Program-made: the position numbers and the translations under genes | Shown here: positions 20,439 through 62,183 of the stretch, piece after piece | Position numbering within the stretch: position 1 is the first letter of the stretch | Layout: each line of letters opens with the position of its first letter | DNA from: a candidate division FCPU426 bacterium | Lineage (GTDB): Bacteria; Oederibacteriota; Muellerivitia; Muellerivitales; Muellerivitaceae | Length of the DNA: 64,000 nt | Assembly: GCA_963771075.1 (NCBI GenBank) | Contig: CAVYSE010000003.1 | Location: forward strand, 128,001-192,000 | Direction of reading: 5' to 3' | Notes under the pieces: generated by a model | Databases searched by the model: none | What the model was told of the DNA's origin: nothing | What the model saw: the letters and a program-made list of their open reading frames with translations, nothing else

Positions 20439-20748
20439 CGGGCTCCTTGTCCAGGGCGACGCCTATTGCGAGCCAACCAGGCGAGAAGTGAGGTTTGGCT
20501 TCTCCGAATTTTAAAACGGCTGGGGCAAGCCGAGGACTGGATCGATGGGTGCCGGGGCGGGCTAATTAAGAGCCCCGGCACTTGGGTCCTGGTTTCTTGC
20601 CAGTTTAAAAGAAAAACGAACAACAAAATGCCTGTCCACCATGATCCATTATTCATTTTGTCCACGACAGGTCCCCGCCATGTTGCATGTGCTTGCGTTT
20701 AGCTACATGGCCCGTTGTGGATAACCAATTCCAGGTTTAAGGCGCGAG

Positions 20749-21075: not shown

Positions 21076-21199
21076 AGCACTAGTTTCCTTACGATTGACT
21101 CGATTTCCCGTCTGATACCATATCCCCAAAACACATTTTGGCGATTTCCCTCAAGCGTTGGAGCGTTATGGGGGCGGTGATCAGTTCAATATTGTCCAT
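21072..21199 (-). pseudogene. DUF5674-like gene remnant with the middle deleted
   Basis: N-terminus MDNIELITAPITLQRLREIAKMCFGDMV joined out of frame to a C-terminus IRREIESIVRKLVL*. Confidence 0.55.
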
Positions 21200-21331
21200 A
21201 AGTCCGGATTATAACATTCTTTCCCGAAAATCATGTTTAGACCCCCTATCCTTTCGTGATCCGAGATGGGTCCCCGCCATGCAGCATGCGCTTGCCCTTA
21301 GCTACATGGCCCGTCGCGGACCATTAACAGC

Positions 21332-21508
21332 CTAAGGTTTATAAACGAGCATCGCCTTGATATACATGGCGATGGCGCCCACAATCCAGCCCGCGAAAAA
21401 TATGGCGACGTCCCTGGTTTGTGCCGGATTACCCTTGAGCCAAAATCCGCCGAGAACGACGGCCATCACGATGACCACCGCGATCCCCCAACTGACGAAT
21501 GGATTCAT
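21332..21508 (-). CDS. 58-aa two-TM membrane protein (absent from the ORF track)
   Basis: GGAGG RBS; MNPFVSWGIAVVIVMAVVLGGFWLKGNPAQTRDVAIFFAGWIVGAIAMYIKAMLVYKP*; fills the interval between two dyad sites. Confidence 0.75.
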   Translation of the reverse strand: MNPFVSWGIAVVIVMAVVLGGFWLKGNPAQTRDVAIFFAGWIVGAIAMYIKAMLVYKP

Positions 21509-21586
21509 AACGCAACCTCCGATTTGGCCGTCCTCAATGGTTACTCCCCGCGGACAAGGTTTTAGGCATTTTTTGAAACTTCAAAT

Positions 21587-22291
21587 TTACATTTTTTCTT
21601 TTACGCCCTTCATTGCTTTTTCTGTCATCGGGGCGGTTTTTGACATGCCGTTGATAACTTCAAATGTTAGTAAAAGTGCCACACCCGGATTCATTACTTC
21701 ATGAATCTTCTCCAACAGATCAACCAAGCTGCGAACGGAAGCCCTTAACGCCTCTTTTTTATTTTTTAACGGACCCAAAATCGCATCCACCTTAGGGCGG
21801 GTTTCGTATCCGATTTTCAACGGAATCACGAAGGGATTATTATCCGGGGGCACAGATAATGGCACCTTGCCCCAATCCTCCGGTTTTCCAATCCCGGCGG
21901 CGTAATTTTCTAATACTTTCTTCATCGGGGGAAAGTCGCCTTGGGCGTAAACGCCTGGCGTTAATTGGTCTCGCAGCATTCCTACAACCGAATCCGAGGG
22001 AAACGAATCTAATTCCTTGCTCAGGGATTCGCCGTAAATAATCGAATTGACCTTATCGGAAAACACTCTCGCCCCGGGGACCAAGTCGTGATCACGAAGG
22101 GAGAAATCCCCCGCTAGGTCTATGCACCGTTCCGCGACAATGGTTGAGATTAGGGCTAGGGCATCTTCTGAACGAATTCGTTTATTTTTCTCGGACAAGG
22201 CTTCAATGACAAAGGCGGTAAGTCTGGCTTGGGCTATATCAGGTTTTGAGGAAAATCCCGTCATATCCATCAGTAAATCTTTAATTCCCAT
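21587..22291 (-). CDS. Hypothetical protein (module gene)
   Basis: 234-aa ORF with AGGAGG RBS, fills the interval between two dyad sites. Confidence 0.8.
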   Translation of the reverse strand: MGIKDLLMDMTGFSSKPDIAQARLTAFVIEALSEKNKRIRSEDALALISTIVAERCIDLAGDFSLRDHDLVPGARVFSDKVNSIIYGESLSKELDSFPSDSVVGMLRDQLTPGVYAQGDFPPMKKVLENYAAGIGKPEDWGKVPLSVPPDNNPFVIPLKIGYETRPKVDAILGPLKNKKEALRASVRSLVDLLEKIHEVMNPGVALLLTFEVINGMSKTAPMTEKAMKGVKEKM

Positions 22292-22339
22292 ACGACCTCC
22301 TATATTCCTTGACCACGACAGGTCCCCATAGGGGGACTA

Positions 22340-23064: not shown

Positions 23065-25041
23065 GCAGAGTAGAGCGCTGGCGCGTATGCCTTAGAGTAC
23101 GGTGGCGAATCCAACCCTTTCGGATTGGGCCTCAGTCCGGCTCTCATCACCACGTTTCCAGCGCCCCCTCATCAAACCGTACGTGACCTTTTCGATCATA
23201 CGGCTTTCCGACAACCTTTCAACCGGCAGCATTCAAGGCAAAAGCTGGAATCCAGTTCAAACCAAGGCGTTTCACTTCCTCGATCGACCATGTTCGTCCT
23301 TCCCAGGCGTACTTATGCCTCCGAAACAAAGTCAGCCTTTCGAGTACGTAAAATTGAAGCTTGGAAAAGTATGGCTGGCTGTCCCCAATTCGGAAATAGT
23401 TGGCCCACCCCCTTAACACCGGGTTCAAAGCCTTCGCTACATCCTCCATTGGAGATAAGAGCCGCTCTCGGCCCGCCGTCATCTGCTTCACTTTCTCGGC
23501 GATTTTCTTCATGGCCTTCCGGCTCGGCCAGCTCAGGCAACAGGTCTTACCCAATCCTACCACCGGCATACCTACTCGAAAGTGGAACCCAAGGAAGTCA
23601 AACCCTTCCTTCCCAGGCCCCATTTCCACCAGCCGTGTCTTTTCGGGGTGCAGTTCAAGCCCTAGTCGTCCCATCAATTCCTTGATGACTTCCAGGCTCT
23701 TTTCCGCATGGGCTTGGCTTCCGCACAACACCACAAAATCGTCGGCGTAGCGCACCAGCCTACCCAGTTTCCTGTGCCTCTTATTCCAAACCTTGTCCAG
23801 CAAGTGAAGGTAAACATTGGATAACAGCGGTGAGATCACCCCGCCTTGCGGTGTCCCTCGGAGAGTCGGCGTAAGCCTTCCTTCCTCAAACACACCCGCC
23901 TTCAGCCACCCTCGGATCAGTTTCAAAACCTTCCGGTCACTGATCCTCTGGCGCACCAGCACCATCAGTTTGTCGTGGTCGATGGAATCGAAATACTTCC
24001 GAATATCTCCATCCACCACCCATCTGTACCCGCCATTGATCCACTTCTTGATCTCCCGGTGGGCCTGCTGGGCTCCGCGTTTTGGCCGAAATCCAAACGA
24101 GCCTTCCAGAAAGTCCGCCTCAAAGATGGGTTCCACCACCTTCCGGCAAGCCGCTTGAACTACCCGATCCCGAATTACCGGGATTCCCAACGGTCTCTTG
24201 CTTCCATCAGGCTTGGGTATTTCCACTCGTCTCACAGGTTTAGGCAGATACTTCCCAGCTTTGAGTTCTTCCTGGATGCCCTTCAGGAATGGAATAATTC
24301 CCACCTTCTCTTCGATCCATTCCAGCGTTTCCCCGTCCACTCCTCCTTGGCCTTTATTAGCCTTCACCTGTTTCCATGCCGCTGTCAGGACATCCCATCG
24401 GGTCATCCTGTCATGCAGTACATGAAATCTCCGGCTTGGGCTCCTCTTGGCCGCTCGGTATAGCGCCCTTTGAAGGGTTCGCGCCTTGTCTTCGGAGTTG
24501 TTGGCCCTTTGGGGCATGCTCCAGCGCCTCCCTTTTGAAGGTTGCTTGGTTGAAGCAGGGGTCCTTCCCTCCAGGTGGTTTTGTTGTCCACCCTTCACAG
24601 GTATTGTGACCCCCTCCGACTTCCTCCCGCCCTTGCCCCTTTTCGGTTTTAGCCTTATAGCGGCAAGTCTTTTGGCGGGTAGGATCTCCCAGGTTGCTTG
24701 CAAAGCCTTTCCAGCATTCCGTTCCCCATACGCCGGAGGACTTGCCCCGCTTGCTCCAGATTCTTCAGCGGGATCGTGGCCTTCGCCGGTAGACACGCGG
24801 CTCGGCATCCTCTTGCACCTTTCGGTGTCCCATTCACGACGCGGCAGGATTCACTTGATGTTGCGGACTGCTAGATTGTTCCCTCACTGAATGAGGTTTA
24901 TGACCCCGTTTCGGGCAGAACCTCTCGGTCCTACGCCGGGGGCTGACTTCCAGGCTCTCTGGCGATTACCTGGTCAGGATTTGGGCTGGCCCTCTTCGGC
25001 CTACTCCCTCACCTGCTGGCTCTACAAACCTTCGCTGGCAC
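23065..25041 (-). mobile_element. Group II intron, family A, copy 1 (about 1977 bp)
   Basis: RT ORF; domain V AAAGCCGTATGATCGAAAAGGTCACGTACGGTTT; domain VI ending CTCTACTCTGC; 5' end GTGCC; boundaries from comparison with copy 2, uncertain by 1-3 nt. Confidence 0.93.
23219..24517 (-). CDS. ltrA: Group II intron reverse transcriptase/maturase, no endonuclease domain
   Basis: RPLGIP, GTPQGGVISPLLSN, RYADD, FDFLGF, LRGWANYF; start at MPQRANN after GGAGG. Confidence 0.95.
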   Translation of the reverse strand: MPQRANNSEDKARTLQRALYRAAKRSPSRRFHVLHDRMTRWDVLTAAWKQVKANKGQGGVDGETLEWIEEKVGIIPFLKGIQEELKAGKYLPKPVRRVEIPKPDGSKRPLGIPVIRDRVVQAACRKVVEPIFEADFLEGSFGFRPKRGAQQAHREIKKWINGGYRWVVDGDIRKYFDSIDHDKLMVLVRQRISDRKVLKLIRGWLKAGVFEEGRLTPTLRGTPQGGVISPLLSNVYLHLLDKVWNKRHRKLGRLVRYADDFVVLCGSQAHAEKSLEVIKELMGRLGLELHPEKTRLVEMGPGKEGFDFLGFHFRVGMPVVGLGKTCCLSWPSRKAMKKIAEKVKQMTAGRERLLSPMEDVAKALNPVLRGWANYFRIGDSQPYFSKLQFYVLERLTLFRRHKYAWEGRTWSIEEVKRLGLNWIPAFALNAAG

Positions 25042-26278
25042 GATGTCCACGATGAGGACCCATCGTGGACAAGGTTTAAATTATAGCCGTTTCATATTTT
25101 TGAAATCCCTTGTAGGGGAAAGCGGGAGGCATTTGGGTTCCAGCTCATCGTGAATTCGTAAATGATTTTCATGGACTTGGTAATGGCGTGGTCCCCAGCC
25201 CCGGGGCCGTCCTTCCCAACTGCCTGAGCAATTTTCCATTCCCGGTTTGCTCGTCCTTGTTCACGCCCAGGCCCCAAAGGTAATCGCCCAGGGGGATTCC
25301 GCCGCAGGTCGAGGGCCTTTTCCAGACCATCGGGTAAAAGCGCAGTTTCACCTCCTCCGACCGCCACACCGGGCCAGATCTTGGTTCTCGGGAGGGATAG
25401 GGGGGCCAAAGCCTTTGGGGTTCTTCCCCCTCGGCCAGGGTTTTCTTGGGGCGACCGGGCTTGAGCCCGGTCCCAGTGCCCAAGTCGGCCAGATGAATGG
25501 CGGCACTCACGGAAATACCCCAAATTCCCTTATTTTGATTTGCGGAGTATCCGCCAATCAAATCCCTTGATTTCGAGATTCAAGAGAGGAAGGAGACCTA
25601 ATGCCTCTCGGATAGATCGCTGAAGCCCTTCCCCCTGCCGCAAAAGAACTGATTTACCAAAATCTTCAAAAAACCCTTAAAAACGATCCCCCGATTCGGG
25701 GGACGAAAAATAAGGGTTTTTTGATAACCGAGTACCATCTGCTGGCTTTGGCTGATCTGGTGGATCCGCTCCAGGTCGAAAAGCCCTTCACCTGGCTCAA
25801 AAGTGGGTTCAGGGTCCAAATCGGTTAAATGGGTTACAGAAGCCTCTGAAATCCCTTTATTTACCATCGTACAATTTGTACGAAGTACCTCCTCGGGAGC
25901 CTCGTTTAAGAGGGTAAGACGCCATAAGCTTTGCTAACTCTTGGTCTAGTCATCCGCAACCGCTTGGAAACCTGATCCAAATTTAAGGTCAACTCGTCCT
26001 TGATCCGGTTCTCGATGGCCTGGTAGGCGGCCCACCATCCCCTATCCCTGTTGATTTTGTCTCAAACTGATAAAAAGGCGTATATTGGATTTCTTGAAGG
26101 GACAGGGGATGAACTATAAAAGTAACAAGCAGTTGGCGGTTGGCAGGTAAGACCTAACACCAACATCCAACACGACCCATCAGCCCCCTGACTGAGGGCG
26201 ATAAAAACCATCGAGACGCCAATCCGCCAAGCCTTTCGATGCGATAAAGCTTACCTGGCGGGAAGGGCTTATATAAAA

Positions 26279-38110: not shown

Positions 38111-38328
38111 GGCTTTTTTCTCCCCTCAAACAAACAGGCAAACCTTCTGGGATTGATCCCACACCAATCTTTATAAGCCCAACGCACCCGCAAAGTGAAT
38201 AGGGTCCAACCCGGACCTTTTTATTTAATGACTGAAAATAACCAGGTGCCTGGCCACCGTTATCCACGATTCATCTTGTCCATGTTGGGTCCCCGCAGTG
38301 GCCAGCAGCCTTAATGAGGGTGGCAATG

Positions 38329-38601
38329 TTATTTTTTTCCGGCAACAGCCAACAAGGCCTCGTTGATGACGGTTTGGTATCCGATGCCTCTCTGTTTGCC
38401 AATTCTCTTGGCCCATTCTAAGGTTTTCGGATTGAGGCGGATTGAAACCGGCAAATAAAGCTCATGAGGCTCTTTAGTCGGTCGGCCACGCGGACGGCGC
38501 GGCTTGCCCGAGTGATGTTCGATCGCTTGCCGGTTCTTCTCCACTTCTCCGGGAGTTATCCTTCTTGCCTTGTGAAACGGAAATTCATTTGAGTTCTTCA
38601 T
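38329..38601 (-). CDS. brnA: BrnA-family antitoxin
   Basis: RGRP, VSIRL, GIGYQTVINEAL. Confidence 0.9.
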   Translation of the reverse strand: MKNSNEFPFHKARRITPGEVEKNRQAIEHHSGKPRRPRGRPTKEPHELYLPVSIRLNPKTLEWAKRIGKQRGIGYQTVINEALLAVAGKK

Positions 38602-38866
38602 AACGGTTCCTTTCCCGACGGCTTGCCGGCCTTGCGCTGATGATTCGACAGACCTGGCCTTGTAAGCGCTTGGTGAAAACGACCACTAAAATCTTTCCAC
38701 CGTCAGCTTCTCCAATCAACCATTCCCTGGATTCCAGGGTCGAGTGTTTAGGGTCAGCGGCTACCAGGGCAAAAGGATCATCAAATTCCGTAATAGCTGT
38801 TTTGAATGAAACGCCGTGTTTCTTTTGGTTGGCTTCGTCCTTGGCGAGGTTCCAATCAAATCGCAT
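38585..38866 (-). CDS. brnT: BrnT-family toxin
   Basis: MRFDWNLAKDEANQKKHGVSF, RIISARPA. Confidence 0.93.
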   Translation of the reverse strand: MRFDWNLAKDEANQKKHGVSFKTAITEFDDPFALVAADPKHSTLESREWLIGEADGGKILVVVFTKRLQGQVCRIISARPASRRERNRYEELK

Positions 38867-39002
38867 ATTTTTAGTATATACAATAAATAAAGGTCGTCAA
38901 GGTTCGGTTTCTCATATTCGGACTATCTCTTAATAGGGTTTTAGCTGTTCACGATAGGTCCCCGTCGTGGACAAAAACTACAAGCCGAATACGGGTGGTC
39001 CG

Positions 39003-39440
39003 CTACCTTTTTAATTCCTCAAGTGGAAGAAGTCGCGAGTCTTCCAAGGCGGCCGTTCGGTGTCCAAGACCTTTCAAATAACCTTCGTTGGACGCAAAAG
39101 AAAGAAATGAATCCACGCTCTGCTGGCGGATAAGCGCAACCATATCCCACCGCTCGGTTTCTGGCCCAATTAGAAATTTACCACCTTTGCCGAGGAACAA
39201 TATATCTCCCCCGGTCTCACGCAAGAATGGCAAGGTATGGTCGATATAGCGTCGAAAGGCATCCGCGCCGCTGATGGGTGTTGGCGGACGAAGATCCGGT
39301 GTCGCTGAATAGTCGGCGGTTTCACGGAATCGCAGTAAGTTCAACATCACGATTTCCCCGAGGATCCTCCGCATGACGAAATCCCGTCCGGCTTCCTGCG
39401 TCACATCAAGATAAGGTTTCGTTCCATTTTTATTTGTCAT
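39003..39440 (-). CDS. DUF1330-family protein
   Basis: VMLNLLRFR, FLIGP..ERWD, HRTAALEDSRL. Confidence 0.85.
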   Translation of the reverse strand: MTNKNGTKPYLDVTQEAGRDFVMRRILGEIVMLNLLRFRETADYSATPDLRPPTPISGADAFRRYIDHTLPFLRETGGDILFLGKGGKFLIGPETERWDMVALIRQQSVDSFLSFASNEGYLKGLGHRTAALEDSRLLPLEELKR

Positions 39441-39573
39441 TCAAGCTTGTCCTTTTTTTAGACAGTCATTTCCAACCTAGCAGTTCAGTCTCCAGATATT
39501 GTCCAATGCGGGTCCCCATCGTGGACAGGTAATCGAATCAAATCTCGCTTTCGAGTTTCCAGCAACAAACAGT

Positions 39574-40104
39574 TTAGCGGTTCGGGAATTTTCCTTGGAT
39601 GGTTTTGATCGCCAGAAACAGCGTTTGGGGTTTGTTTGCCAACGGATGGAAACCGTATTTTTGATAAAACCGGACAGCTTGATCATCCTTGGCGTCCACT
39701 ACAACTCCGTAAATTCCAATTTCGTTTGATAAACGTTCAGCTCTCTGTAAAGCGTCTATCAAGAGCGCAATGCCAATTCCACGGCCTTGGTGCCTTTTAT
39801 CCACCGCCAATCTTCCGACCCTAATGGCAGGAGCGGGATAACGGGGGAGGCCTTTTGAATGGGGGGGCGGCAGCATTTGGGAGTCGATTTCTGAAGACAC
39901 GGCCGTGTAAAAACCCAAAACCTTCCCGCTCTCGCTTTTCATCTGCGCAACAAATGTTTTGCCGATGTTTCGTTCATGGTTTTGCCGGGCATATTTTCGC
40001 AAATATTCATTTAGCTCTAATACCCCGCAATCAAAGGAATCAAAATCCAAATGGCAGGTTATGGCTTGAATCTCGAATGCTAAAGGATTCCCTGCGGGGT
40101 TCAA
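39574..40104 (-). CDS. GNAT acetyltransferase toxin (AtaT/TacT-like)
   Basis: FDCG..LNEYL, GRLAVD..QGRGIG, VDAKD..A..FY..YGF. Confidence 0.9.
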   Translation of the reverse strand: MNPAGNPLAFEIQAITCHLDFDSFDCGVLELNEYLRKYARQNHERNIGKTFVAQMKSESGKVLGFYTAVSSEIDSQMLPPPHSKGLPRYPAPAIRVGRLAVDKRHQGRGIGIALLIDALQRAERLSNEIGIYGVVVDAKDDQAVRFYQKYGFHPLANKPQTLFLAIKTIQGKFPNR

Positions 40105-40376
40105 GGGCGGCTATATTTCTTGATCGCCGCTGACAAAGCCTTATTGGGACGGGGCGGATTTTCCAGTACTTTCATGAAAGAATTCCACTCATTTTCGGAA
40201 AGAGTGATGCGGCTTTGGGTCGTAAGCCCCTCCTGGGCGGCCCTTAAGGAATTTGAAAGCATGAACGCACTGAGGCTAAGGCCAAAAATCGAGGCGGCCT
40301 TTTCAAGCATGGCCTTGTCTTTCGGGCGGATGCGAATTTCAATTCGTTGTTCCCTGGATTGTGTCGCCGTTGGCAT
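40101..40376 (-). CDS. DUF1778 antitoxin (AtaR/TacA-like)
   Basis: RIEIR, LEKAA, LSAFM, ITLS..EW..F..LENPP.PN.AL. Confidence 0.92.
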   Translation of the reverse strand: MPTATQSREQRIEIRIRPKDKAMLEKAASIFGLSLSAFMLSNSLRAAQEGLTTQSRITLSENEWNSFMKVLENPPRPNKALSAAIKKYSRP

Positions 40377-40464
40377 AAAGACCTCCTAATTTCTATAAAA
40401 GAAGCATACCTCATCGTACGGATGATGTCCACACACAAGACAAAAATGGTCGTCCACGACGGGT

Positions 40465-41462
40465 AGTTCTGTTCTTTTCTTCATCTTCGGCGTGAACTTC
40501 ACTACCCATTTCCCCCGGCGGTTTATCTCCATCCGGAAGTCAAACCCCAGAAACCCAAAGCTTTCGCCTTTCGTTAAGTCCACTGTCCTCGTTTTGTCCG
40601 TGTTGATTTTCAGGTCAAGTTTAACCAATTCCTCAAGTAGCCTCTGGTAGACCGCCTTCACAAGCCCTTCCCCCTGTGGGTTTCCATCCACGAGGATCAC
40701 CATATCGTCGGCAAACCTCGCATATTCGACAGGGGTGTACATCCCTTGCCGGGTCGCTTCCTTCGCCTTTTCCAGCATCTTGTCCACCTCGTTGAGGTAG
40801 AGATTCGCCAGAAGTGGGGAAACAACTCCGCCTTGGGGAACTCCTCTTTTGCCGCTGGCTTTCAGGATTAGCTTCAGCAATCTCATCACCGTTTTATCCT
40901 CAATCCTCTGCGCTACCTTCTTCAACAGCAGGTCATGCCTTACCGTATCGAAGTACGCCTTCAGATCAAGGTCGATGACTCGGGTTTTCCCCCCGACAAT
41001 TGCTTCGGCTACCCTGTTCACCGCCGCATGAGCAGTCCGCTTGGGCCGGTACCCATAAGACCCGTCTTGAAAATCAGCTTCGAAAATTGGTTCCAGGATG
41101 AGCTTCATCGCTCCCTGGACAACCCTGTCCCGAATGTTGGGTATCCCAAGAGTTCTGACCTTCCCATCTCCCTTGGGTATCTCCTTCTTCCGGTTCCGGG
41201 CCGGTCTATACGTGCCTTGGACTAGTTCACGCTGGATGCTTTCAAGAAACGGCTCTATCCCTGCTTCTTCAATGGCCTCAAATGTCACCCCGTCTATTCC
41301 AGGGGCTCCATTGTTTGACTTCGCCATCTGGTAAGCCTGTTGGAGCGCTTCCATCTTGCAAACATGCGTGTAAAGTCCCCAGAAACGCCAGTTCTTCTCA
41401 GCCTTCGCTTTGACGTATATCTCTCGTCTCAGGTCTTGCAGACTGATGGACGTCTTTTTCAT
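40465..41462 (-). pseudogene. ltrA: Truncated group II intron RT/maturase (RT0-7 present, thumb/X domain lost)
   Basis: SLQDLRREIYVKAKAE, RTLGIP, GVPQGGVVSPLLAN, RFADD, FGFLGFDF; homology stops at KKRTE and the frame reads through into flanking DNA to 40386. Confidence 0.9.
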
Positions 41463-41973
41463 ACCGTCCCTGCCTCCCACTTTTGCCAAGAGATTTCACA
41501 ACAGCAGGGTTACTTCGCTCCACGGGAATTACCCCGCTTCTTAGCTACTTTTAACCCGTCCTACTCCCTCTTGCCTTCGACCGCTTTCCCGCATCGGGTT
41601 ATACGGCCTACCTTTTTCCAAGTATTTCTACCTGGGGCAAGGAGGGTCTCTCCAGTTGCTTGGTATGTCCTTGTCATCATGCCGTGGCTAGCACCCCGCC
41701 AGTGTGTTCCAGCGCATTGGCCATCTGGCCGCTGTTCCATGTTGCCTTCATCCCACGACGGAGGATTCGGCCACTGGGGCTATTGTTTTCGGGGCCACCT
41801 ATGCCTTCACTTTCGTTACGGCCTGACGACTCGCTCACCATCCCGAAGATGGCTTTGTCGATGGGCTTCAGGCATTAAGTTTCCCGCTTGCCTGCCATCC
41901 TAGCTAATGGGTTTTGGCTATTACCCATGCAAGTCTACCTCTTGCTGAACACACCTGCCTTTTCTGGACGCAT
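40465..41973 (-). mobile_element. Group II intron, family B, 3'-truncated, inserted in the spacer of a dyad site
   Basis: 5' end (A)TGCGTCCAGAAAGG with domain I-like motifs and an RT ORF; no domain V/VI; flanked by the two halves of one 26-bp site. Confidence 0.88.
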
Positions 41974-41990
41974 CCCCGTCGTGGACAAGC

Positions 41991-42534
41991 TTAACCAGAA
42001 CTCGATGAATATTTTTTAAGAATCGTTAATTCTTCAGGTGTAAAAAAATCAGGCCATTTCTTTTTAAATGGCAAAACAAACCCCTTATAGAACCATTTAC
42101 GATCAATTCGGGTTTTTAGCGCATCGGGCAATTCATGTATGGCATCCATATAATCTGTAACTAGACTTAGATTTGTGTTTTTGATTAAAGAAGAAGTCCT
42201 GCTAAATACATGGATGAGTGTGTCATGGTCTAATTTCGTTATGCTTCGAGGCCATGGGTAGTAATAAAGAATTTCCGTTAGTTCTTCCTGGTCTAAAGTT
42301 TGGATTTTTAAAACCCGGCAAAGTATTTTTTCCCCATGTCTCTTGTCCTGCTACACGAGATACTCGGTTATTTCCGTCGGCGAAACCATCATTCGCTTTA
42401 ATCTCTTCCAAAGCTCTCACAATCGCATTTAAATATTTAGTCTCTTCTGGCTTCGCCCTGGCCTGAACAGCCAATCGGTGCAATAGATCCAGAAAACAAA
42501 CAGAAATCATTTTTTGTTCAACTGGAGCACTCAT
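41991..42534 (-). CDS. Low-GC hypothetical module gene, probably one ORF broken by two indels
   Basis: AGGAG RBS; 103-aa ORF, then open overlapping frames continuing to a TAA at 41991, 4 nt from the dyad site. Confidence 0.5.
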
Positions 42535-42613
42535 TAAATAATTCTCCTAAAAGAACCTCTTTATCGTTTTTCCTTGTCCAATCCGGGTCCCCGTCGTGGA
42601 CAAGCTTAACCGC

Positions 42614-42966
42614 TTATTCACGTACCCTCACCCGTCCTTTTTCAATAATCCACAACCGTTTATCTACCTGTTCTTTGGACAACAGATCCAATACGGGGCG
42701 GAAAAGTTCGACCATGGTTGGTTTGTCCTGGCGGTCAGACCGGATCACCATGATTCCAGGATATTTTTCCGGCGGGTAAGCCCGGATATCCGAAAAATCA
42801 AGGTCAGAGGTAATGAAGGCGCGGTTTTCGGCCAAGCAAACGACGGCTAAATTCGTATCAGGATGGCCGGTTAATTCTTGGTCTTTTACCGTAAGGGCGT
42901 CATGACCAGCTTGGATTAAAAGATGTTTGATCTCGAAAGGCAGGTTTTCATCGATTTTGAACTTCA

Positions 42967-42967
<1 letters not shown>
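42614..42967 (-). CDS. DUF5615 PIN-like toxin
   Basis: MKFKIDENLP, GHDA, FITSDLDFSD. Confidence 0.9.
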
Positions 42968-43287
<320 letters not shown>

Positions 43288-43335
43288 TTAAACAACCCCT
43301 AAAGGCTAAAACCGGCTCTAATAGCACTATTACCT

Positions 43336-45312
43336 GCAGAGTAGAGCGCTGGCGCGTATGCCTTAGAGTACGGTGGCGAATCCAACCCTTTCGGATTGGG
43401 CCTCAGTCCGGCTCTCATCACCACGTTTCCAGCGCCCCCTCATCAAACCGTACGTGACCTTTTCGATCATACGGCTTTCCGACAACCTTTCAACCGGCAG
43501 CATTCAAGGCAAAAGCTGGAATCCAGTTCAAACCAAGGCGTTTCACTTCCTCGATCGACCATGTTCGTCCTTCCCAGGCGTACTTATGCCTCCGAAACAA
43601 AGTCAGCCTTTCGAGTACGTAAAATTGAAGCTTGGAAAAGTATGGCTGGCTGTCCCCAATTCGGAAATAGTTGGCCCACCCCCTTAACACCGGGTTCAAA
43701 GCCTTCGCTACATCCTCCATTGGAGATAAGAGCCGCTCTCGGCCCGCCGTCATCTGCTTCACTTTCTCGGCGATTTTCTTCATGGCCTTCCGGCTCGGCC
43801 AGCTCAGGCAACAGGTCTTACCCAATCCTACCACCGGCATACCTACTCGAAAGTGGAACCCAAGGAAGTCAAACCCTTCCTTCCCAGGCCCCATTTCCAC
43901 CAGCCGTGTCTTTTCGGGGTGCAGTTCAAGCCCTAGTCGTCCCATCAATTCCTTGATGACTTCCAGGCTCTTTTCCGCATGGGCTTGGCTTCCGCACAAC
44001 ACCACAAAATCGTCGGCGTAGCGCACCAGCCTACCCAGTTTCCTGTGCCTCTTATTCCAAACCTTGTCCAGCAAGTGAAGGTAAACATTGGATAACAGCG
44101 GTGAGATCACCCCGCCTTGCGGTGTCCCTCGGAGAGTCGGCGTAAGCCTTCCTTCCTCAAACACACCCGCCTTCAGCCACCCTCGGATCAGTTTCAAAAC
44201 CTTCCGGTCACTGATCCTCTGGCGCACCAGCACCATCAGTTTGTCGTGGTCGATGGAATCGAAATACTTCCGAATATCTCCATCCACCACCCATCTGTAC
44301 CCGCCATTGATCCACTTCTTGATCTCCCGGTGGGCCTGCTGGGCTCCGCGTTTTGGCCGAAATCCAAACGAGCCTTCCAGAAAGTCCGCCTCAAAGATGG
44401 GTTCCACCACCTTCCGGCAAGCCGCTTGAACTACCCGATCCCGAATTACCGGGATTCCCAACGGTCTCTTGCTTCCATCAGGCTTGGGTATTTCCACTCG
44501 TCTCACAGGTTTAGGCAGATACTTCCCAGCTTTGAGTTCTTCCTGGATGCCCTTCAGGAATGGAATAATTCCCACCTTCTCTTCGATCCATTCCAGCGTT
44601 TCCCCGTCCACTCCTCCTTGGCCTTTATTAGCCTTCACCTGTTTCCATGCCGCTGTCAGGACATCCCATCGGGTCATCCTGTCATGCAGTACATGAAATC
44701 TCCGGCTTGGGCTCCTCTTGGCCGCTCGGTATAGCGCCCTTTGAAGGGTTCGCGCCTTGTCTTCGGAGTTGTTGGCCCTTTGGGGCATGCTCCAGCGCCT
44801 CCCTTTTGAAGGTTGCTTGGTTGAAGCAGGGGTCCTTCCCTCCAGGTGGTTTTGTTGTCCACCCTTCACAGGTATTGTGACCCCCTCCGACTTCCTCCCG
44901 CCCTTGCCCCTTTTCGGTTTTAGCCTTATAGCGGCAAGTCTTTTGGCGGGTAGGATCTCCCAGGTTGCTTGCAAAGCCTTTCCAGCATTCCGTTCCCCAT
45001 ACGCCGGAGGACTTTCCCCGCTTGCTCCAGATTCTTCAGCGGGATCGTGGCCTTCGCCGGTAGACACGCGGCTCGGCATCCTCTTGCACCTTTCGGTGTC
45101 CCATTCACGACGCGGCAGGATTCACTTGATGTTGCGGACTGCTAGATTGTTCCCTCACTGAATGAGGTTTATGACCCCGTTTCGGGCAGAACCTCTCGGT
45201 CCTACGCCGGGGGCTGACTTCCAGGCTCTCTGGCGATTACCTGGTCAGGATTTGGGCTGGCCCTCTTCGGCCTACTCCCTCACCTGCTGGCTCTACAAAC
45301 CTTCGCTGGCAC
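43336..45312 (-). mobile_element. Group II intron, family A, copy 2
   Basis: Matches 23065-25041; only one substitution seen (45015 T vs 24744 G). Confidence 0.93.
43490..44788 (-). CDS. ltrA: Group II intron reverse transcriptase/maturase
   Basis: Identical protein to 23219-24517. Confidence 0.95.
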   Translation of the reverse strand: MPQRANNSEDKARTLQRALYRAAKRSPSRRFHVLHDRMTRWDVLTAAWKQVKANKGQGGVDGETLEWIEEKVGIIPFLKGIQEELKAGKYLPKPVRRVEIPKPDGSKRPLGIPVIRDRVVQAACRKVVEPIFEADFLEGSFGFRPKRGAQQAHREIKKWINGGYRWVVDGDIRKYFDSIDHDKLMVLVRQRISDRKVLKLIRGWLKAGVFEEGRLTPTLRGTPQGGVISPLLSNVYLHLLDKVWNKRHRKLGRLVRYADDFVVLCGSQAHAEKSLEVIKELMGRLGLELHPEKTRLVEMGPGKEGFDFLGFHFRVGMPVVGLGKTCCLSWPSRKAMKKIAEKVKQMTAGRERLLSPMEDVAKALNPVLRGWANYFRIGDSQPYFSKLQFYVLERLTLFRRHKYAWEGRTWSIEEVKRLGLNWIPAFALNAAG

Positions 45313-45386
45313 GATGTCCACGAAGGGTCCCCGTTGTGGACGGCAAATTCACTTCAAAATAGTAATAGTGGCCTGACACCTTTTTC

Positions 45387-45842
45387 TTAGTCTAAAATCT
45401 TTCGCATTTGCCTGCAATCTTCCGCAATCCCGGTAAGCTCATCCGCATCCCAGTCATAAAATTCCCAGCCCAATTTTTTGTAGAATCCCAAAGCCTCAGG
45501 CGCGGCATTCACATATAAAGTCTTAATCCCAAAGTCGCGCGCATACTTTTCCACCAAAGAAGATAATTGGCGTCCGTGACCACTCCTTTGGTAATCATCT
45601 GATATGGCAACCAGTCGTACCGCGCCATAGCCATCTCTAAAATCATCTAAGCGGGTAGTACCAACAGGGATGTTATTGAGCAACAATAGAAGCGGGTGAT
45701 GATTCGGCAGATATTCATCCTCATGCATTTCATCGTAGTCTTGTTTTCCACGATTTTCCCACAGCACTTTATGGCGAATGTCGTGATATGCCTGCCAATG
45801 GTTCAAAGCGGTAACTTTTATGAGTTCATAGTTTTTTTGCAT
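45387..45842 (-). CDS. GNAT N-acetyltransferase
   Basis: VRLVAI..YQRSGHG, NAAPEALGFYKKLGW. Confidence 0.88.
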   Translation of the reverse strand: MQKNYELIKVTALNHWQAYHDIRHKVLWENRGKQDYDEMHEDEYLPNHHPLLLLLNNIPVGTTRLDDFRDGYGAVRLVAISDDYQRSGHGRQLSSLVEKYARDFGIKTLYVNAAPEALGFYKKLGWEFYDWDADELTGIAEDCRQMRKILD

Positions 45843-45953
45843 TTTCGAACCTAACAAACCGTAATTCAAAAGTATTTTTAAAAAAGGGACAGACCAACAT
45901 TAACCATTTTTCCCTGTCCAATGCGGCTCCCCATCGTGGACAGGTCCATCCTG

Positions 45954-46376
45954 TTATTGCCCACTCTTGACTACTTTGGTGATCTTAACAGAGTCGATGC
46001 AGACAAATTGCATGACCCCTTTTTGATAGGGCGTACAGGGGCATACCGTGAAGATTCCATAAACCTCAGCGCCCAAATCATCCCTGAAAATCGCATCTAA
46101 ATTTTCTGGAGTGGGAGCTTCACCACGCACACCCAATACCCTCTGGGTTCCAATCATCCAAATCTTCATTGATGTAAGATTGGCGCCAAAACGTGCCCGT
46201 CCCCTAAAAGAAAAGCATTTTCCAACAACCCTGGGGTCGCTATGACAGGGGCCTTTGAATTCCATGTAGGAGTCTACTGTCGGGGTGGCAGTGGCACTAT
46301 CAGCACTGACGGGGTGTTTCAACCCCACGCACAAAAGAAGAAGAGTTATAGAAATAATATTTATTTTTTTCATCAC
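45954..46376 (-). CDS. Secreted Cys-containing hypothetical protein
   Basis: Signal peptide; GKCFSFRGR, YGIFTVCP, QFVCID; fills a site-to-site interval. Confidence 0.75.
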   Translation of the reverse strand: MMKKINIISITLLLLCVGLKHPVSADSATATPTVDSYMEFKGPCHSDPRVVGKCFSFRGRARFGANLTSMKIWMIGTQRVLGVRGEAPTPENLDAIFRDDLGAEVYGIFTVCPCTPYQKGVMQFVCIDSVKITKVVKSGQ

Positions 46377-46430
46377 GTCTCACTTCTCCAATTTTGTCTG
46401 TCCACGATGGGTCCCCATCGTGGACAAGGA

Positions 46431-46787
46431 TTAAGCCCTGCGAACCCGAACCTTTTGATTTGTGGCTACGACATTGCAACCAGCCCAAGTGGAGACATCT
46501 TCACTTTCAAAAATCTCCACAATGCGTTTAAACAGGTCTTCGCGGCTAGGATCAATAAGTCGGATGAGTAGAACGCCATGGTGGGTTCCCGGGGAATGGC
46601 TTCGTATGTCGGAGAAATACAAATCCTGTGATACTAGAAAGCGCTTGGCTTCCTGGGCGGCCTTCCAAACGCTTGGATCGTCCTTGCCCTTCAGGCTCTC
46701 TTGGAGGACGGTATCCACGTCATGGCCGAGCCGGGTAAGGGGTTCACTTAAATCGGCGGGAAGGTTCTCATCCAGCTTTATTTTCAT
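46431..46787 (-). CDS. DUF5615 PIN-like toxin (second, divergent copy)
   Basis: MKIKLDENLP, GHDVDTV, LVSQD..FSD, HHGV. Confidence 0.9.
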   Translation of the reverse strand: MKIKLDENLPADLSEPLTRLGHDVDTVLQESLKGKDDPSVWKAAQEAKRFLVSQDLYFSDIRSHSPGTHHGVLLIRLIDPSREDLFKRIVEIFESEDVSTWAGCNVVATNQKVRVRRA

Positions 46788-46796
46788 GTGGTGGAA

Positions 46797-47033
46797 TTAG
46801 ACGGTTGGGACGGCGGGAACGGGCAGGTCTTCCTCAGCAGAAGATGCGGCATAAGAAATGACGGAGGTTACCGCCTCACGTGTTAACGAGGGAAAAGATT
46901 TAAGCACTTGATCCATGCTGTCACCGGCGGCAAGGCTGGCTAAAACAGTCCTAAGAGTTACCCTCGTGCCTTTAATGACGGGTTGGCCGTTACAGATTTT
47001 TGGGTCTCTAACGATAAAGTCCGTGTGATTCAT
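46797..47033 (-). CDS. DUF433 antitoxin (second, divergent copy)
   Basis: DPKICNGQPVIKGTRV, FPSL. Confidence 0.92.
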   Translation of the reverse strand: MNHTDFIVRDPKICNGQPVIKGTRVTLRTVLASLAAGDSMDQVLKSFPSLTREAVTSVISYAASSAEEDLPVPAVPTV

Positions 47034-47230
47034 AACCCCTCCTCATCAACTGAAGTTATTTTAGGCATGATGCCATGGGGGAACAAGTGGCTGTGTAGTA
47101 AGTGGCCCTTATGCAATATAACCAGCCCAAAAGGAGGTATATTTACAATCAATTTAGGTGTCCACGATGGGTCCCCATCGTGGACTAGCTTCAACGTCAG
47201 GTGTCGGAAATAACTTTCATGGGATCGGGT

Positions 47231-53778: not shown

Positions 53779-55945
53779 CGTCATCGTAGAGCCGAATGAA
53801 ACGTCCCCGCAAAAGCGTTTCCCGCTACCCCGCCGATCGATTCATCCCCGTGTACGCGGGGAACACACCCCCTCCTGGAAAGCGTACTGCGTGACCATCG
53901 GTTCATCCCCGCGTACGCGGGGAACGTTCAACATCTAAAACAATTTGCTCAACCCAGTCCGGTTCATCCCCGCGTACGCGGGGAACGTTGGCCTGTGCAA
54001 TTGGGGGAAAATGTATCCCTCGGTTCATCCCCGCGTACGCGGGGAACGTAAGCCAAGTTCAGGGCTTTTGTTTTACGGGCACGGTTCATCCCCGCGTACG
54101 CGGGGAACGTGGTCCGGGGACAACCTTCTTTTACGCACAAATCGGTTCATCCCCGCGTACGCGGGGAACGTTTAATTAATTAACCTAACTTTCTCTAAAA
54201 ACCCGGTTCATCCCCGCGTACGCGGGGAACGTTTGCATAGGCCAAAGCCTAAGACTGAAAAGACCGGTTCATCCCCGCGTACGCGGGGAACGTAAGGCCT
54301 TCATCCAGACCAACCCGGGTTGGGGCGGTTCATCCCCGCGTACGCGGGGAACGTAAAGGCATTTGATTGCGCGGGAAATCAATATACGGTTCATCCCCGC
54401 GTACGCGGGGAACGTCATTTCTTCTAAATCGGACAACGGTAAACCATCGGTTCATCCCCGCGTACGCGGGGAACGTTACATCCTCCCGTTAACAACGTAT
54501 TCAAGAGCCGGTTCATCCCCGCGTACGCGGGGAACGTCTAGTAATGAGGCATTAAATGAATTGGTTTTGCGGTTCATCCCCGCGTACGCGGGGAACGTTA
54601 CAATGTGGCAACCGCGGCCTCGATTACCGGCGGTTCATCCCCGCGTACGCGGGGAACGTCGATACTAACTCATGCAAATACCGGCAATCACCGGTTCATC
54701 CCCGCGTACGCGGGGAACGTACTGATTCTGAAATTCCTGTATCGTCTATTTCCGGTTCATCCCCGCGTACGCGGGGAACGTGATGCTTTGGCTGGCCGGA
54801 ACAACTGCTGGACCGGTTCATCCCCGCGTACGCGGGGAACGTAAAAGAGAGAGTTAACCGAAACGTTTTCCATCCGGTTCATCCCCGCGTACGCGGGGAA
54901 CGTAGTCAAGCGCACTCCGAACCGCCGCTCGGTTTCGGTTCATCCCCGCGTACGCGGGGAACGTTGTGAGGGCCGGCGAAAATAGGCCCGCTAAAGCGGT
55001 TCATCCCCGCGTACGCGGGGAACGTGACGCTCAATTTTTCCTAGACAACTTGGATTCCGGTTCATCCCCGCGTACGCGGGGAACGTGTTTTAGCTAAGTC
55101 TGATTTAACATCTTATGCCGGTTCATCCCCGCGTACGCGGGGAACGTGTCTAGGACAAATTGAGGCATCATAATCGCTCACGGTTCATCCCCGCGTACGC
55201 GGGGAACGTTCAGTGGACTCCACCTTGTGCTCCACGGACGCGCGGTTCATCCCCGCGTACGCGGGGAACGTTTGCTGAGTATCGTCTCGATCTCTGTCAC
55301 GAGCGGTTCATCCCCGCGTACGCGGGGAACGCTATCCTTGAGAATTGAGGCGAGGCATCTTGTATCCGGTTCATCCCCGCGTACGCGGGGAACGTTGGGG
55401 TATGCTAGGGTATGACAATTAATCTCGGTTCATCCCCGCGTACGCGGGGAACGTTAGACCCTTTTGAATTCCGACCGGAAAAATTCCGGTTCATCCCCGC
55501 GTACGCGGGGAACGTGACTGATACCCACAAGTTTTATGGCGAAGGACCGGTTCATCCCCGCGTACGCGGGGAACGTCGGTGTTCACACGTTGCAGCTGGA
55601 GCGCTGGACGGTTCATCCCCGCGTACGCGGGGAACGTTCCAATCGACTTTGCCAATTCGCAAATACTTCTCGGTTCATCCCCGCGTACGCGGGGAACGTC
55701 TGTCATTCGGCCATTATGCGTACCATCGAGTCGGTTCATCCCCGCGTACGCGGGGAACGTTTGCCTTGGTTTTGGTGCCATTATCGGCCTACCCGGTTCA
55801 TCCCCGCGTACGCGGGGAACGTTTCACCATCTTCTGCTGGGCCTCGTCCTTGGCCGGTTCATCCCCGCGTACGCGGGGAACGTTAGAAACTCTCTCCCTT
55901 AAATTTAACTACCCCGGTTCATCCCCGCGTACGCGGGGAACGTAA

Positions 55946-57000
55946 CCCGAGTTCCATAAGTAAGTGCAACACTCAGTGCAAGAAGAAAGCCGCCTCCATA
56001 GGATAGGCGGCCATGAAAAAAAACTACAAGCATTTAAGCGTTGAAGAAAGAGATCACTTGGCCGTTTTGAAGGGGAAAGGTCATGGGGTCCGGGATATCG
56101 CCAGAATCCTCAAGCGTTCCCCATCCACCATCTCCCGCGAACTCAAGCGCAACGCCCCAACCATCCGCACGGGTTATTACTTAGCCCACCGTGCCCACCT
56201 ACGATATATCGTCCGTAACCAGCAACGGGCACGCCGTTTACGCCTGAAAACAAAGCGAATTCGTGCCTACGTCCGCCGTCAATTGAAACGAGGTTGGTCT
56301 CCTGAACTCATTTCGGGTCGTTGGAGCTGCCTACATCCCAAGCAAACCATTGGCCCCGAAGCCATCTACCAGTGGATTTACATTGAGGCCACTGATTTGA
56401 TCTCTTACCTCGTTCGACACCACCGGCAACGTCTCTCTTTCGGCCACAGCCGTAAGCACGCCAAAAACCATATTCCAGGCCGTGTTTCCATCGACAAAAG
56501 GCCCAAGGCCGTCAACCAACGCAAGCAGTTCGGCCATTGGGAAACCGACACCATGGTCTCCCGTGAAAGCAAAGTCGCCATGCGGGCTCTCGTCGAACGT
56601 CAAAGCCGTTTTTCCAAGTTGGGAAAGCTCAAACGAAAAACAGCTGCCCAAATGAGTCACAGCCTCAATCGTACTTTAGGCCGCTTCCCTCAAGAAGCTC
56701 GTCTGAGTTTGACCTACGACAATGGAACCGAAAACACCAACCACCTGGAAACCAACCGCGTGCTTGGTACAAAATCCTTTTTCGGTGCGCCTTTCCACAG
56801 TTGGGAAAAAGGCACTGTAGAAAATACCATTGGTCTTGTTCGCCGTTATTTGCCCAAAAAGACTGACCTTGCTAAAGTATCTCTCAAAGAATTCAAAGCC
56901 ATCGAAAGATGGCTCAATCACAGGCCCAGAAAATGTTTGGGTTTTAAAACTCCGGCGGAAGTCTTCCGGCGAAGTGTTGCACTTACTCCGTGAATTCAGC
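55946..57000 (+). mobile_element. IS30-family insertion sequence within the CRISPR array
   Basis: Imperfect ~27-bp terminal IRs sharing AGTAAGTGCAACACT; TAA(C) target duplication. Confidence 0.93.
56013..56993 (+). CDS. IS30-family transposase
   Basis: YKHLSVEER, STISRELKRN, GHWETDT, TYDNGTE, WEKGTVEN, LNHRPRKCLG. Confidence 0.96.
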   Translation: MKKNYKHLSVEERDHLAVLKGKGHGVRDIARILKRSPSTISRELKRNAPTIRTGYYLAHRAHLRYIVRNQQRARRLRLKTKRIRAYVRRQLKRGWSPELISGRWSCLHPKQTIGPEAIYQWIYIEATDLISYLVRHHRQRLSFGHSRKHAKNHIPGRVSIDKRPKAVNQRKQFGHWETDTMVSRESKVAMRALVERQSRFSKLGKLKRKTAAQMSHSLNRTLGRFPQEARLSLTYDNGTENTNHLETNRVLGTKSFFGAPFHSWEKGTVENTIGLVRRYLPKKTDLAKVSLKEFKAIERWLNHRPRKCLGFKTPAEVFRRSVALTP

Positions 57001-57617
57001 TAACTTCACCTGAGCGATACTGATTTTTTTAAACGGTTCATCCCCGCGTACGCGGGGAACGTTCAGGGGTGACGTTTCCGGAATCAGGGTGACCGGTTCA
57101 TCCCCGCGTACGCGGGGAACGTTCGGTGATCGCCCAATTTCACCATTCCGCCTTCGGTTCATCCCCGCGTACGCGGGGAACGTAGGTCTTATCCTCCTTT
57201 CCCTTGACTCTCTTTCGGTTCATCCCCGCGTACGCGGGGAACGTAGACCAAGATTGAGCCACACCTTCTTCCTAGCCCGGTTCATCCCCGCGTACGCGGG
57301 GAACGCTGGCATGGCAATACGGAAATGGGGACAGATCAAATCGGTTCATCCCCGCGTACGCGGGGAACGTTGTCACACAGGCGGGAGCGGCGACGACATC
57401 TCCGGTTCATCCCCGCGTACGCGGGGAACGTTTCTTCTGTTTCGGCATGAGCAGGTTCCTCCTCGGTTCATCCCCGCGTACGCGGGGAACGTGGCTTGTA
57501 ACTGATTCATTAGTCACGACCTCCCGGTTCATCCCCGCGTACGCGGGGAACGTACTTATAAACGGCCATTTAACGCGTCATTTTTCCGTCAAACGGCTCC
57601 GTAGCCCTAAAAACGCC

Positions 57618-58826
<1,209 letters not shown>

Positions 58827-58830
<4 letters not shown>

Positions 58831-59315
58831 TTGGGGCCTTCCTGCGCTTTTGGCAGTTCCTCAAGCTTGTACCGGACATACTTGCCGCCCCCCACCCGCA
58901 CCAGGCGTTTGCCGTGCATCATCCGAAAGACGTGATTTAAGAAGAAATAGTTGTCCCCCCTTCGGGTCACCCCTTGGCAGAGGTCCAAAAGCCGATTCAA
59001 GTTATAAATTAGGGTACTTTTGGGAACGCCCAGTTCACGTGCTAAATCCCCTGGGGCGATTTCCCCCTCACGTTCAATGCAATCTATGATCTTTTTCCAA
59101 TATTCCATGGCATCCTCATGCGGGCGTCTTCCTTTTTTTCTGTTGAGATAGGCTTCTGTTTTAGGTTTGGGCGCCTTGTCTTTGGTGATGGATTGGATGG
59201 GTTGCGCCAAGGGAGGTGATTCAACAGGCGGGTTTGGCTTTGGGTGTGCAGCTTGGGTAGTATTTAAGCCAAAGAGACCCTTGATTAAACTTTTAATAGA
59301 CGGTTCATCTGCCAT
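58827..59315 (-). CDS. Winged-HTH-like protein translationally coupled to cas1
   Basis: GEIAPGDLARELGVPKSTLIYNLNRL helix-turn-helix, wing RVGGGKYVRY; ATGA overlap with cas1. Confidence 0.7.
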
Positions 59316-59337
59316 ACACCCACCATCCTTTCACCTT

Positions 59338-59809
59338 CTCACGTCCAATTTTAGCCGTGTTGTCGCTTTAATTGGACGCGAGGCAGTTTAAATGTCGTTT
59401 AAACGAGCCTTACATTCCCAAGACAAAACAGACCTTTGTCTTATTAGAAAAAATCCAATGTTTTCCGGCCCAGGTTATCCATCCGTCACGTCCAATTTTA
59501 GCCGCGTTACAGTTTTAATTGGACGCGAGACGCGTTTATCAACCCCTACCGTTCCATACGACTCCATCCCTTTGCCATCTCACGTCCAATTAATACCGCA
59601 TTGCGGACAAAATTGGACGCGAGACACCCTGCATAAACCATCTCAAACACCCAACTTGTGCAAGAGGCCCTTGCACAATTGACCGGTTGAGCTAAGCCGA
59701 AACAAAAACCCACATATACTTGAGATTCCGGGGTAAAAACCCCTCATGTCCGGGAAAGCGGCGGATAAACTTGCCAATTAATTCCGAAATACGGAAATAA
59801 TTGGCAAGT
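59338..59809. repeat. Four palindromic boxes CCAATT-N4-CCG-N5-CGG-N4-AATTGG
   Basis: Copies at 59338-59382, 59485-59529, 59579-59623, 59769-59809, all with 19 nt between CCAATT and AATTGG; inner CGG imperfect in the first two. Confidence 0.85.
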
Positions 59810-59832
59810 AAGCCCCGGAAAACGACCGTGAC

Positions 59833-60894
59833 TTAAACCCGGTAGGATACACGGCTTTCCATGAGCCGTTGGGTTTTCATGATTTCCCCGGCCAAGGTAT
59901 CCTCATCCGGCAGGGCCATACGGTATTCCGCCGCCATGATCTTGTTGGGTAGACCCTCCAAAGCGTATTTAGCGACTGCCTCGTCCCTTTGGGCGCACAA
60001 GATCAGGCCTACCGGGGGGTTTTCCTCCTCCCGGGCCCAGTGTTCCCGGGCGTAATTGAGGTACATGTGCATCTGGCCCGCGTCGGCGTGGGTGAACTTG
60101 CCGATTTTCAGGTCGATCACCACCAAGCAACGCAGTTTTCGGTGGAAGAAGAGCAAATCCACCCGGTACCATTCGTCGCCGATTCTCAGCCGTTTTTGGC
60201 GGCCCACGAAGGTGAAGTCCCCGCCCAGTTCCATCAGGAAGTATTCCAACTGCCGTATGAGGGCTTCCTCCAGGTCGTTCTCGGAATACTCGTCTTTCAG
60301 CCCCAAAAACTCCAAAACCAGGGGATCTTTCAGTTCCGTCTCGGGCGTTGTTTCCTCTCCCGCTTGTGCCTTTTCGCCCTTGCGGAGCATGGAAGCCTTG
60401 TTTTTGGACATGGACGTGCGCTCGTAAAACAGACTGGAAACCTGCCGGTCCAACTGCCGCACGCTCCATCCGCCCCGCAGGGCCTCGGTTTCATAAAAGG
60501 CCCTGGCCTTTGGTGAACGGCTTTTCCGGACCAACAGAACGTAATGAGACCAAGAAAGGGGAAAAACACCGGCTAATTGGACAGCCTCTAATTTCCGAGA
60601 CAGCGTCTCGGAAATCTTTTCGGATGAATAAGCCATATAGAAAAGCCGCATGGTTTCAAGGTTATCGTGTGAAAACCCCCGCCCAAACTGATTGGTCAAA
60701 TCCTCTCCCAACTGTTTGAGCAAAGCTTCCCCATACCCGGCCCTTTCCTTACCGCCCTGCTCAAATTCCACGATCCGGCGGCCCACCAGCCAATAGGTGG
60801 CGGTCATGACCGAATTGACGGTCCGGGCGGAGGTCCGACGGGCTTCGGCCAGGTAATCGGCGACTTCCTTCAGGAGGACATCATAATTTTTCAT
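59833..60894 (-). CDS. YhcG/DUF1016 PD-(D/E)XK nuclease-domain protein
   Basis: YWLVGRRIVEFEQGG, LSWSHY, KDPLVLEFL, FVGRQKR, DLLFFHR, DLKIG, GQMHMYLNY. Confidence 0.93.
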   Translation of the reverse strand: MKNYDVLLKEVADYLAEARRTSARTVNSVMTATYWLVGRRIVEFEQGGKERAGYGEALLKQLGEDLTNQFGRGFSHDNLETMRLFYMAYSSEKISETLSRKLEAVQLAGVFPLSWSHYVLLVRKSRSPKARAFYETEALRGGWSVRQLDRQVSSLFYERTSMSKNKASMLRKGEKAQAGEETTPETELKDPLVLEFLGLKDEYSENDLEEALIRQLEYFLMELGGDFTFVGRQKRLRIGDEWYRVDLLFFHRKLRCLVVIDLKIGKFTHADAGQMHMYLNYAREHWAREEENPPVGLILCAQRDEAVAKYALEGLPNKIMAAEYRMALPDEDTLAGEIMKTQRLMESRVSYRV

Positions 60895-62181: not shown

Positions 62182-62183
62182 AG

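Follow-up and report, generated by a model that had tools for sequence, protein, structure and literature searches.

The window, that is, the whole 64,000-nt stretch of DNA analysed here, contains a cassette array on the minus strand (38277..47186) in which all sites have one orientation, and one of these sites is split by part of a group II intron at 40465-41972, hereafter intron B. Further array sites lie at 38277 (decayed), 38946, 39500, 42575, 45315, 45915, 46399 and 47159, and the array carries no recombinase gene. Downstream of the intron, a minus-strand cassette encodes a TacA1 antitoxin and a GNAT toxin (39574..40376) and recurs between sites with other neighbours in genomes G014 and G020; upstream lies a cassette with a 103-aa ORF (42223..42534, minus strand) for which neither Pfam nor NCBIfam gives a match. 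Intron A (1,979 nt; 43336..45314, minus strand) directly follows the outer end of a site arm, and a second copy of it lies at 23065-25043. Several decayed half-sites stand beside small genes near the A copy that comes first in the window (20633-22337). We take 54363-63883 to be a type I-E CRISPR-Cas locus with extra genes between cas1 and cas6, its CRISPR array presumably split by an IS-like transposase at 56013-56993.

Read on the minus strand, the split site runs TGTCCACGACGGG-GA, 1,508 intron bases, A-CCCGTCGTGGACG. Alignment to two full-length relatives, L211 and L215, identifies the intron bases (40465..41972, minus strand) as nucleotides 2-1509 of 1,997, with three differences over 1,508 nt (99.8% identity). 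Relative to L211, the window copy is without G1, the last 488 nt and the GGG of the 3' exon, and it has an extra GGA at its 5' junction, so that the core A appears twice. The left 13-nt arm (41975..41987, minus strand; IBS1 at 41977-41982, usual insertion point at 41976/41977) is followed at the 5' junction by the core dinucleotide GA (41973..41974, minus strand), whereas in relatives the intron's G1 comes directly after the 11-nt arm end. On the other side, the second core A (40464) and the right 13-nt arm occupy 40451..40464 (minus strand) by comparison with the full-length intron; this A derives from the site because intron nucleotide 1510 is T. A sequence-only reading of this DNA had set the intron limits at 40465-41973. 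The intron's own sequence is 40465-41972 (nt 1509 to 2), and 41973 is not its G1; the letters confirm, as that reading had it, that excising 40465-41973 restores a perfect site, GTCCACGACG-GGTCCC-CGTCGTGGAC.

The reverse transcriptase (RT) frame comprises codons 1-333 of 433 (40465..41462, minus strand) and scores 317.7 bits with TIGR04416 (cut-off 300); RVT_1 is present and GIIM absent. It ends in codon 333, at the start of the maturase/thumb domain (GIIM 333-398 in a homologue), and stays open beyond the junction, with its stop at 40386 in the flank; the complete C-terminus of a B-type RT is present in L211. Part of ribozyme domain I is recognised at 41811..41947 (minus strand; Rfam group-II-D1D4-4, RF02003, 116.8 bits, gathering 49). 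Intron B is a single copy in G000, the genome assembly that contains the window. Domains V-VI are absent from this copy and were found nowhere in the assembly, so no donor copy of B is assembled in G000; the loss of the RT thumb and of domains V-VI noted before thus holds.

A repeated 13-GA-13 site in cassette arrays

Half-site matches with at most one mismatch number 22 against 3.6 expected, and a profile built from 68 sites of G000 finds 96 matches in that genome (among them the left portion of the split site and a few copies that assembly has duplicated) and none in a reversed-genome control; the site is therefore no chance repeat. It measures 28 bp, is conserved only within 13-GA-13 and has the GA core in 89 of the 96 matches, a count that is partly circular since seeds were picked on the spacer. 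The sites stand in runs, each directly behind a short gene or a toxin-antitoxin pair, and 68 of 70 neighbour pairs are co-oriented. The pattern occurs in 25 of 30 genomes of the same family, in the one genome of the same order (1/1) and in none of 29 others, and together with the 96 genome matches this bears out the earlier view of the site as an abundant and persistent target. These contexts support the site as a putative boundary of mobile cassettes.

Changes in the arms are mostly one-sided (151, with 8 two-sided), which fits binding by a protein to the double strand more than recognition of a folded single strand. Hairpin recognition of the site was rejected, arm compensation being slight (3 of the 8 two-sided changes). 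Y1 HUH elements are multi-copy in G000 (17 of 20 PF01797 matches, mostly 316-326-aa frames with short terminal inverted repeats), and some lie inside or near arrays; a HUH/REP reading of the site was discarded, as these 316-326-aa transposases have terminal repeats of their own.

The assembly G000 holds one intact 277-aa gene with Resolvase and Recombinase domains, a short serine recombinase, and three truncated copies, and a site lies 15 bases behind the stop in each of them. The truncated copies (G000:C6:158408, C8:42242 and C28:107694) have lost their 5' part and each retain the end site. Among 11 short-form loci (at least 71% identity), eight have a site 9-35 nt after the stop, two belong to a single frameshifted gene that has a site close by, and in one the site is split by a B intron. 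At L176/L093 (G020), a B intron stands in the site about 36 bases behind the short serine recombinase gene. More distant recombinase loci have no adjoining site (0/15), and the query used did not recover the short recombinase from several genomes rich in arrays (G002, G008, G018 and G025). We regard 13-GA-13 as a probable serine-recombinase cassette site, with inverted arms around a 2-bp asymmetric core, directly repeated.

A tyrosine recombinase (dif-like) reading was set aside, no site lying within about 1.5 kb of an Xer-like gene in 30 loci. The single, divergent Xer-like gene at G000:C6:114198-115232 occurs in 29 of 30 family genomes, 1/1 of the same order and 0/29 others, the range of the site itself; any clade-wide gene would have that range. 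The family of G000 is mostly without the strong XerC/XerD-like matches found in other families of the phylum. As for IntI, not one of the 8 PF00589 matches comes within 25 kb of a listed site, and the one of these eight that was scanned reaches 74.9 with TIGR02249, whose cut-off is 265. Judged against attC cores, the site is not attC. A search of full-text literature, whose coverage mostly leaves out subscription papers, found no serine-recombinase cassette arrays or introns in them.

Intron B inserts at a fixed point in the site arm

A genome scan for B relatives recovered 80 loci. One MAG holds 12 full-length B-type copies (84% identical), 10 of them at TGTCCACGACG/GGGACC-type junctions (the slash marks the insertion point) and the remaining two at TGTCGTCGACG/TGGTAC. 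The same arm/GG insertion point is used by L091, L093 and the ORF-less L095, L096 and L107; L090 and L094 are inserted at other sequences, and L102 has no readable 5' exon. The target of L090 is near-cognate, and its 5' junction carries a single additional C. A pattern search of metagenomes that permitted 1-6 bases at the junction gave 23 matches, 19 at the canonical TGTCCACGACG/GGGACC and 4 in unrelated contexts, and some of these matches share flanks (L208/L213/L218 and L207/L219). The GGGA junction of the window type was seen in 0 of the 23 metagenome matches and in none of the genome copies read, and viral contigs searched for the junction pattern gave 0 matches. L211 and L215, both complete at 1,997 nt and with an EBS1 loop identical to that of the window copy, occupy the site in opposite core orientation; the intron therefore ignores the core. 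Insertion of the B lineage is fixed at TGTCCACGACG/GG, a point within one arm of the 13-GA-13 site, and the close full-length relatives, whose targets the sequence-only reading had proposed to examine, occupy this same site.

The EBS1 of the window copy, CGUCGU(G) at 41754..41760 (minus strand), is supported by covariation over 56 junctions and by a stem-loop fold; it pairs with exon positions -1 to -6/-7, CGUCGU facing the ACGACG of the site arm. A register test drew on 59 junctions, 56 of them with the 11-nt loop segment, from relatives that are not independent: 49 of the 56 pair five or six of six positions at offset 0, whereas at most 1 of 56 does so at five other offsets. Over 33 distinct EBS/IBS types, the mean is 4.70 of 6 Watson-Crick pairs against 2.92 when shuffled, and 0 of 10,000 shuffles were as high. 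The EBS1/IBS1 pairing that had been proposed for modelling is thus found at offset 0. A likely EBS2, ACAA at 41783..41786 (minus strand), pairs with exon positions -9 to -12 (TTGT) in the best register over 61 junctions, where the paired fraction is 0.85. EBS1 and the likely EBS2 both read arm sequence.

These results bear on the claim that B is programmed against the centre of the site. The complementarity behind it, of CTCCGTCGTGG (41753-41763) to the 5' exon CCACGACGGGG with one G-U pair, can be written; as a working register the 11-nt pairing fails, EBS1 being only 41755-41760 plus 41754, and 10 relatives whose targets differ carry the CTC of the earlier GGG pairing as well. Whichever way the core points, relatives are inserted at the arm boundary, and with the register test at offset 0 the claim is contradicted.

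Short ORF-less introns with B-like 5' ends occupy the same arm position (L095/L103, L096, L107 and L208/L213/L218; 654 nt in L208), and at L103 an ORF-less intron is followed head-to-tail by another B-type copy. Four of 10 site-inserted B copies of one MAG (L009, L015, L017 and L036) are in sites that also hold an A-type intron, at the end of the far arm; L017 and L036 have an identical flank.

Intron A has 10 near-full copies in G000. In 10 of 10 full copies it adjoins the outer end of an arm and leaves the site whole, and UGUCUA is its likely EBS1 by sequence. With RTs of A and B 42-43% identical, two different retroelements do specialise on one site, as had been suspected.

Class and ancestry of intron B

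The complete B intron encodes a 433-aa ORF with only RVT_1 and GIIM and no En domain. Its full-length ends in L211, L215 and L010 are GTGCG...CCCTAC, with 5' GUGYG and 3' AY as in group II introns. Domains V and VI of L211 fold as expected, but Rfam RF00029 stays below gathering in L211 and L010; in domain V of L211 we recognise what we take to be the AGC triad. With six to seven EBS1 pairs, an EBS2-like register and a target other than attC, B reads as a non-class-C intron; passages of PMC3753933 describe IIC introns as lacking part of EBS1 and all of EBS2. En-minus classes F and g1-g6 are covered in PMC3552965 and PMC8919778, and PMC12584367 describes a further IIB intron that is specialised, though on a different target. 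Near-identical copies at many sites are an indirect sign that B may splice and home.

Site-targeting copies group in a single clade (11 rows, SH-aLRT 99) that lies within the distant relatives and far from A, in a quick tree with a midpoint root and no bootstrap; the tree covered proteins with at least 240 aligned residues and contained no reference class members of PMC3552965. Among distant relatives with a readable 5' junction, 33 of 46 are inserted where a domain V-like hairpin ends and 13 elsewhere, by a rule of our own. Since the site-targeting clade is nested among mostly domain V-inserted relatives, the B lineage likely switched its target from domain V of other introns to the cassette site, a switch that changes in the EBS loops would have made; against it, L094 inside the clade carries another EBS1. 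The EBS1 of L094 matches its own, non-site target. At the cassette site, the intron RNA would reverse-splice into one arm by EBS1/EBS2 pairing and then be copied by its own RT, primed probably at the replication fork as in other En-minus introns (PMC4424553), and the site would be put out of action, since insertion leaves 11 of its arm bases 2 kb from the core.

Origin of the truncated, centred copy

The centred insertion and clean truncation of the window copy are probably not biology. The likeliest explanation, and in our judgement a probable one, is a hybrid made in the long-read consensus from two alleles, an empty site and one occupied by the full 1,997-nt intron. The B insertion would have been recent and polymorphic in the sequenced population, and window-based polishing would have swapped about 500 bases for the empty allele and left site letters at the other junction. 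A long-read assembly is indicated because G000 resolves 10 near-identical 2-kb introns. Racon-style polishing makes the consensus in separate windows (PMC5411768), set at 500 nt in one Racon re-implementation (PMC11392814), and long-read metagenome assemblies are described as splicing parts of two subpopulations (10.1101/2025.04.22.649783). The 491 bases lost and 1,508 kept fit one and three 500-nt polishing windows, and both junction edges carry site letters, as empty-allele reads would add. Contigs at least 99% identical continue as intron past 40465 in 7 of 7 sequencing runs examined (7 of 24 listed, from 4 studies), and among the listed 5' loose ends (X1, X3, X5 and X6) all are canonical. 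Inverted duplications of 91-97% identity with many gaps, on contigs C26, C17, C22 and C10 of G000, three of which reach the contig end, also favour a hybrid; we read them as presumably fold-back long-read artefacts. The one on C26 doubles three array sites. The break shows neither microhomology nor a pseudo-site, and G000 has no donor copy and no trace of the missing tail, which we also count in favour of a hybrid.

Several observations count against a hybrid. No contig of the seven runs bridges either flank to the site, and the runs say nothing of this locus; in present contig coordinates, about 44 bases separate the break from a multiple of 500; both ends are intact in all 10 full A copies of G000; L090 is a case, at another locus, of a junction displaced by one base; and the left junction falls exactly after GA, where a serine recombinase would presumably cut. 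Inspection of G000 by eye for other partial repeats near multiples of 500 gave nothing clear. In runs X4 (DNA) and X15 (RNA), one contig each over 40250-42200 joins 41972 to 40465 via 489 letters; this number is exactly that of the missing part (1,997 minus 1,508) and points to a head-to-tail intron junction, in a circle or a tandem pair.

A real deletion of 491 bases (the intron 3' end and GGG) from a normal copy, with the 5' GGA added later by empty-site polishing, would require only a small consensus error, and truncated group II introns are described as common, also in cassette arrays (PMC7923331). We nevertheless think it unlikely, for it would need to end inside the 6-base spacer by chance, and the 1-3 differences from active copies leave little time since insertion. 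The two breaks moreover share 0 bases, which also speaks against the microhomology deletion once proposed for the 3' loss. Loss by the recombinase at a pseudo-site, the other mechanism put forward, fares no better: arm-likeness lies at the 7th-24th percentile for ends 1509-1511 and at the 83rd for 1508, with all scores strongly negative. That the lineage was reprogrammed to the site centre and then trimmed by microhomology or by the recombinase at a cryptic site is very hard to credit. The 11-nt complementarity is writable and removal restores a perfect site, yet L211 and L215 insert at the arm boundary with an identical EBS1 loop, the register test contradicts it, and neither microhomology nor a pseudo-site was found.

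Rather improbable, and placed by us below a deletion, is a break-primed cDNA patch, in which a serine recombinase cut the GA core, the RT primed on the cut end within the intron RNA at nt 1509 and made cDNA as far as nt 2, and this cDNA was then linked to the opposite end with one core base doubled. The junctions, exactly arm13+GA on the left and A+arm13 on the right, suit such a patch, and the missing G1 would be expected from a stop at the lariat branch; G000 has an intact recombinase gene, group II RTs are reported to act in break repair (10.1101/2022.03.14.484287), and error-prone 5' junctions to arise from linear RNA (PMC3280974). Yet this form occurs in 0 of 23 metagenome matches and in no genome copy read, the primer end would be mismatched (T against U1510), G000 has no assembled donor copy, a core junction comes easily by chance with only six spacer positions, and the near-500 lengths stay unexplained. 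If true, the patch would be a route for RNA capture into an integron-like array built on serine recombination. The consensus hybrid, which we prefer, carries a caution instead: where a truncated element in a long-read MAG is flanked by a target that its removal restores perfectly, consensus building can be the cause.

Two intron lineages on one site, and comparison with known systems

The second intron lineage is in our view real, and it homes to an arm of the cassette site, which is probably that of a serine recombinase. Like IIC-attC introns on integrons, two distinct non-class-C introns appear to have converged on a single recombination site, and this convergence lends independent support to the site as an abundant, long-lived, mobile element. 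As A leaves the site whole and B splits it, their effects on cassette movement should differ. The intron RTs could serve as baits for finding such arrays, and the B clade may offer a traceable target change, in which few EBS changes would have led from domain V of introns to the cassette site.

The arrays resemble integrons and CALINs in their cassettes, which share one orientation, hold a single gene or a toxin-antitoxin pair and each have a site at the end, in a recombinase gene that converges on an atypical end site, and in that some arrays, like that of the window, have no recombinase. They differ in that no IntI scored over the cut-off among the proteins scanned here and in that the arms vary one side at a time. 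Halophile IIB introns in integrons and CALINs, as PMC7923331 describes them, are likewise non-class-C, some of them truncated, and sit in toxin-antitoxin-rich arrays; those are attC/IntI arrays, whereas here a fixed homing point in a non-attC site is used by many copies in many genomes. The nested introns of Methanosarcina acetivorans (described in PMC4424553) share site-specific homing, into other group II introns, and a lasting safe target, but the B clade has likely left the intron target for a cassette site. Closest in setting are the IIC-attC introns (S.ma.I2 and kin, also in PMC4424553), En-minus introns in recombination sites of cassette arrays. Intron B differs from these in its 6-7-nt EBS1 and likely EBS2 reading the arm, in a site that is a 28-bp 13-GA-13 palindrome neighboured by a short serine recombinase and not IntI, and in that two separate intron lineages share this one site.
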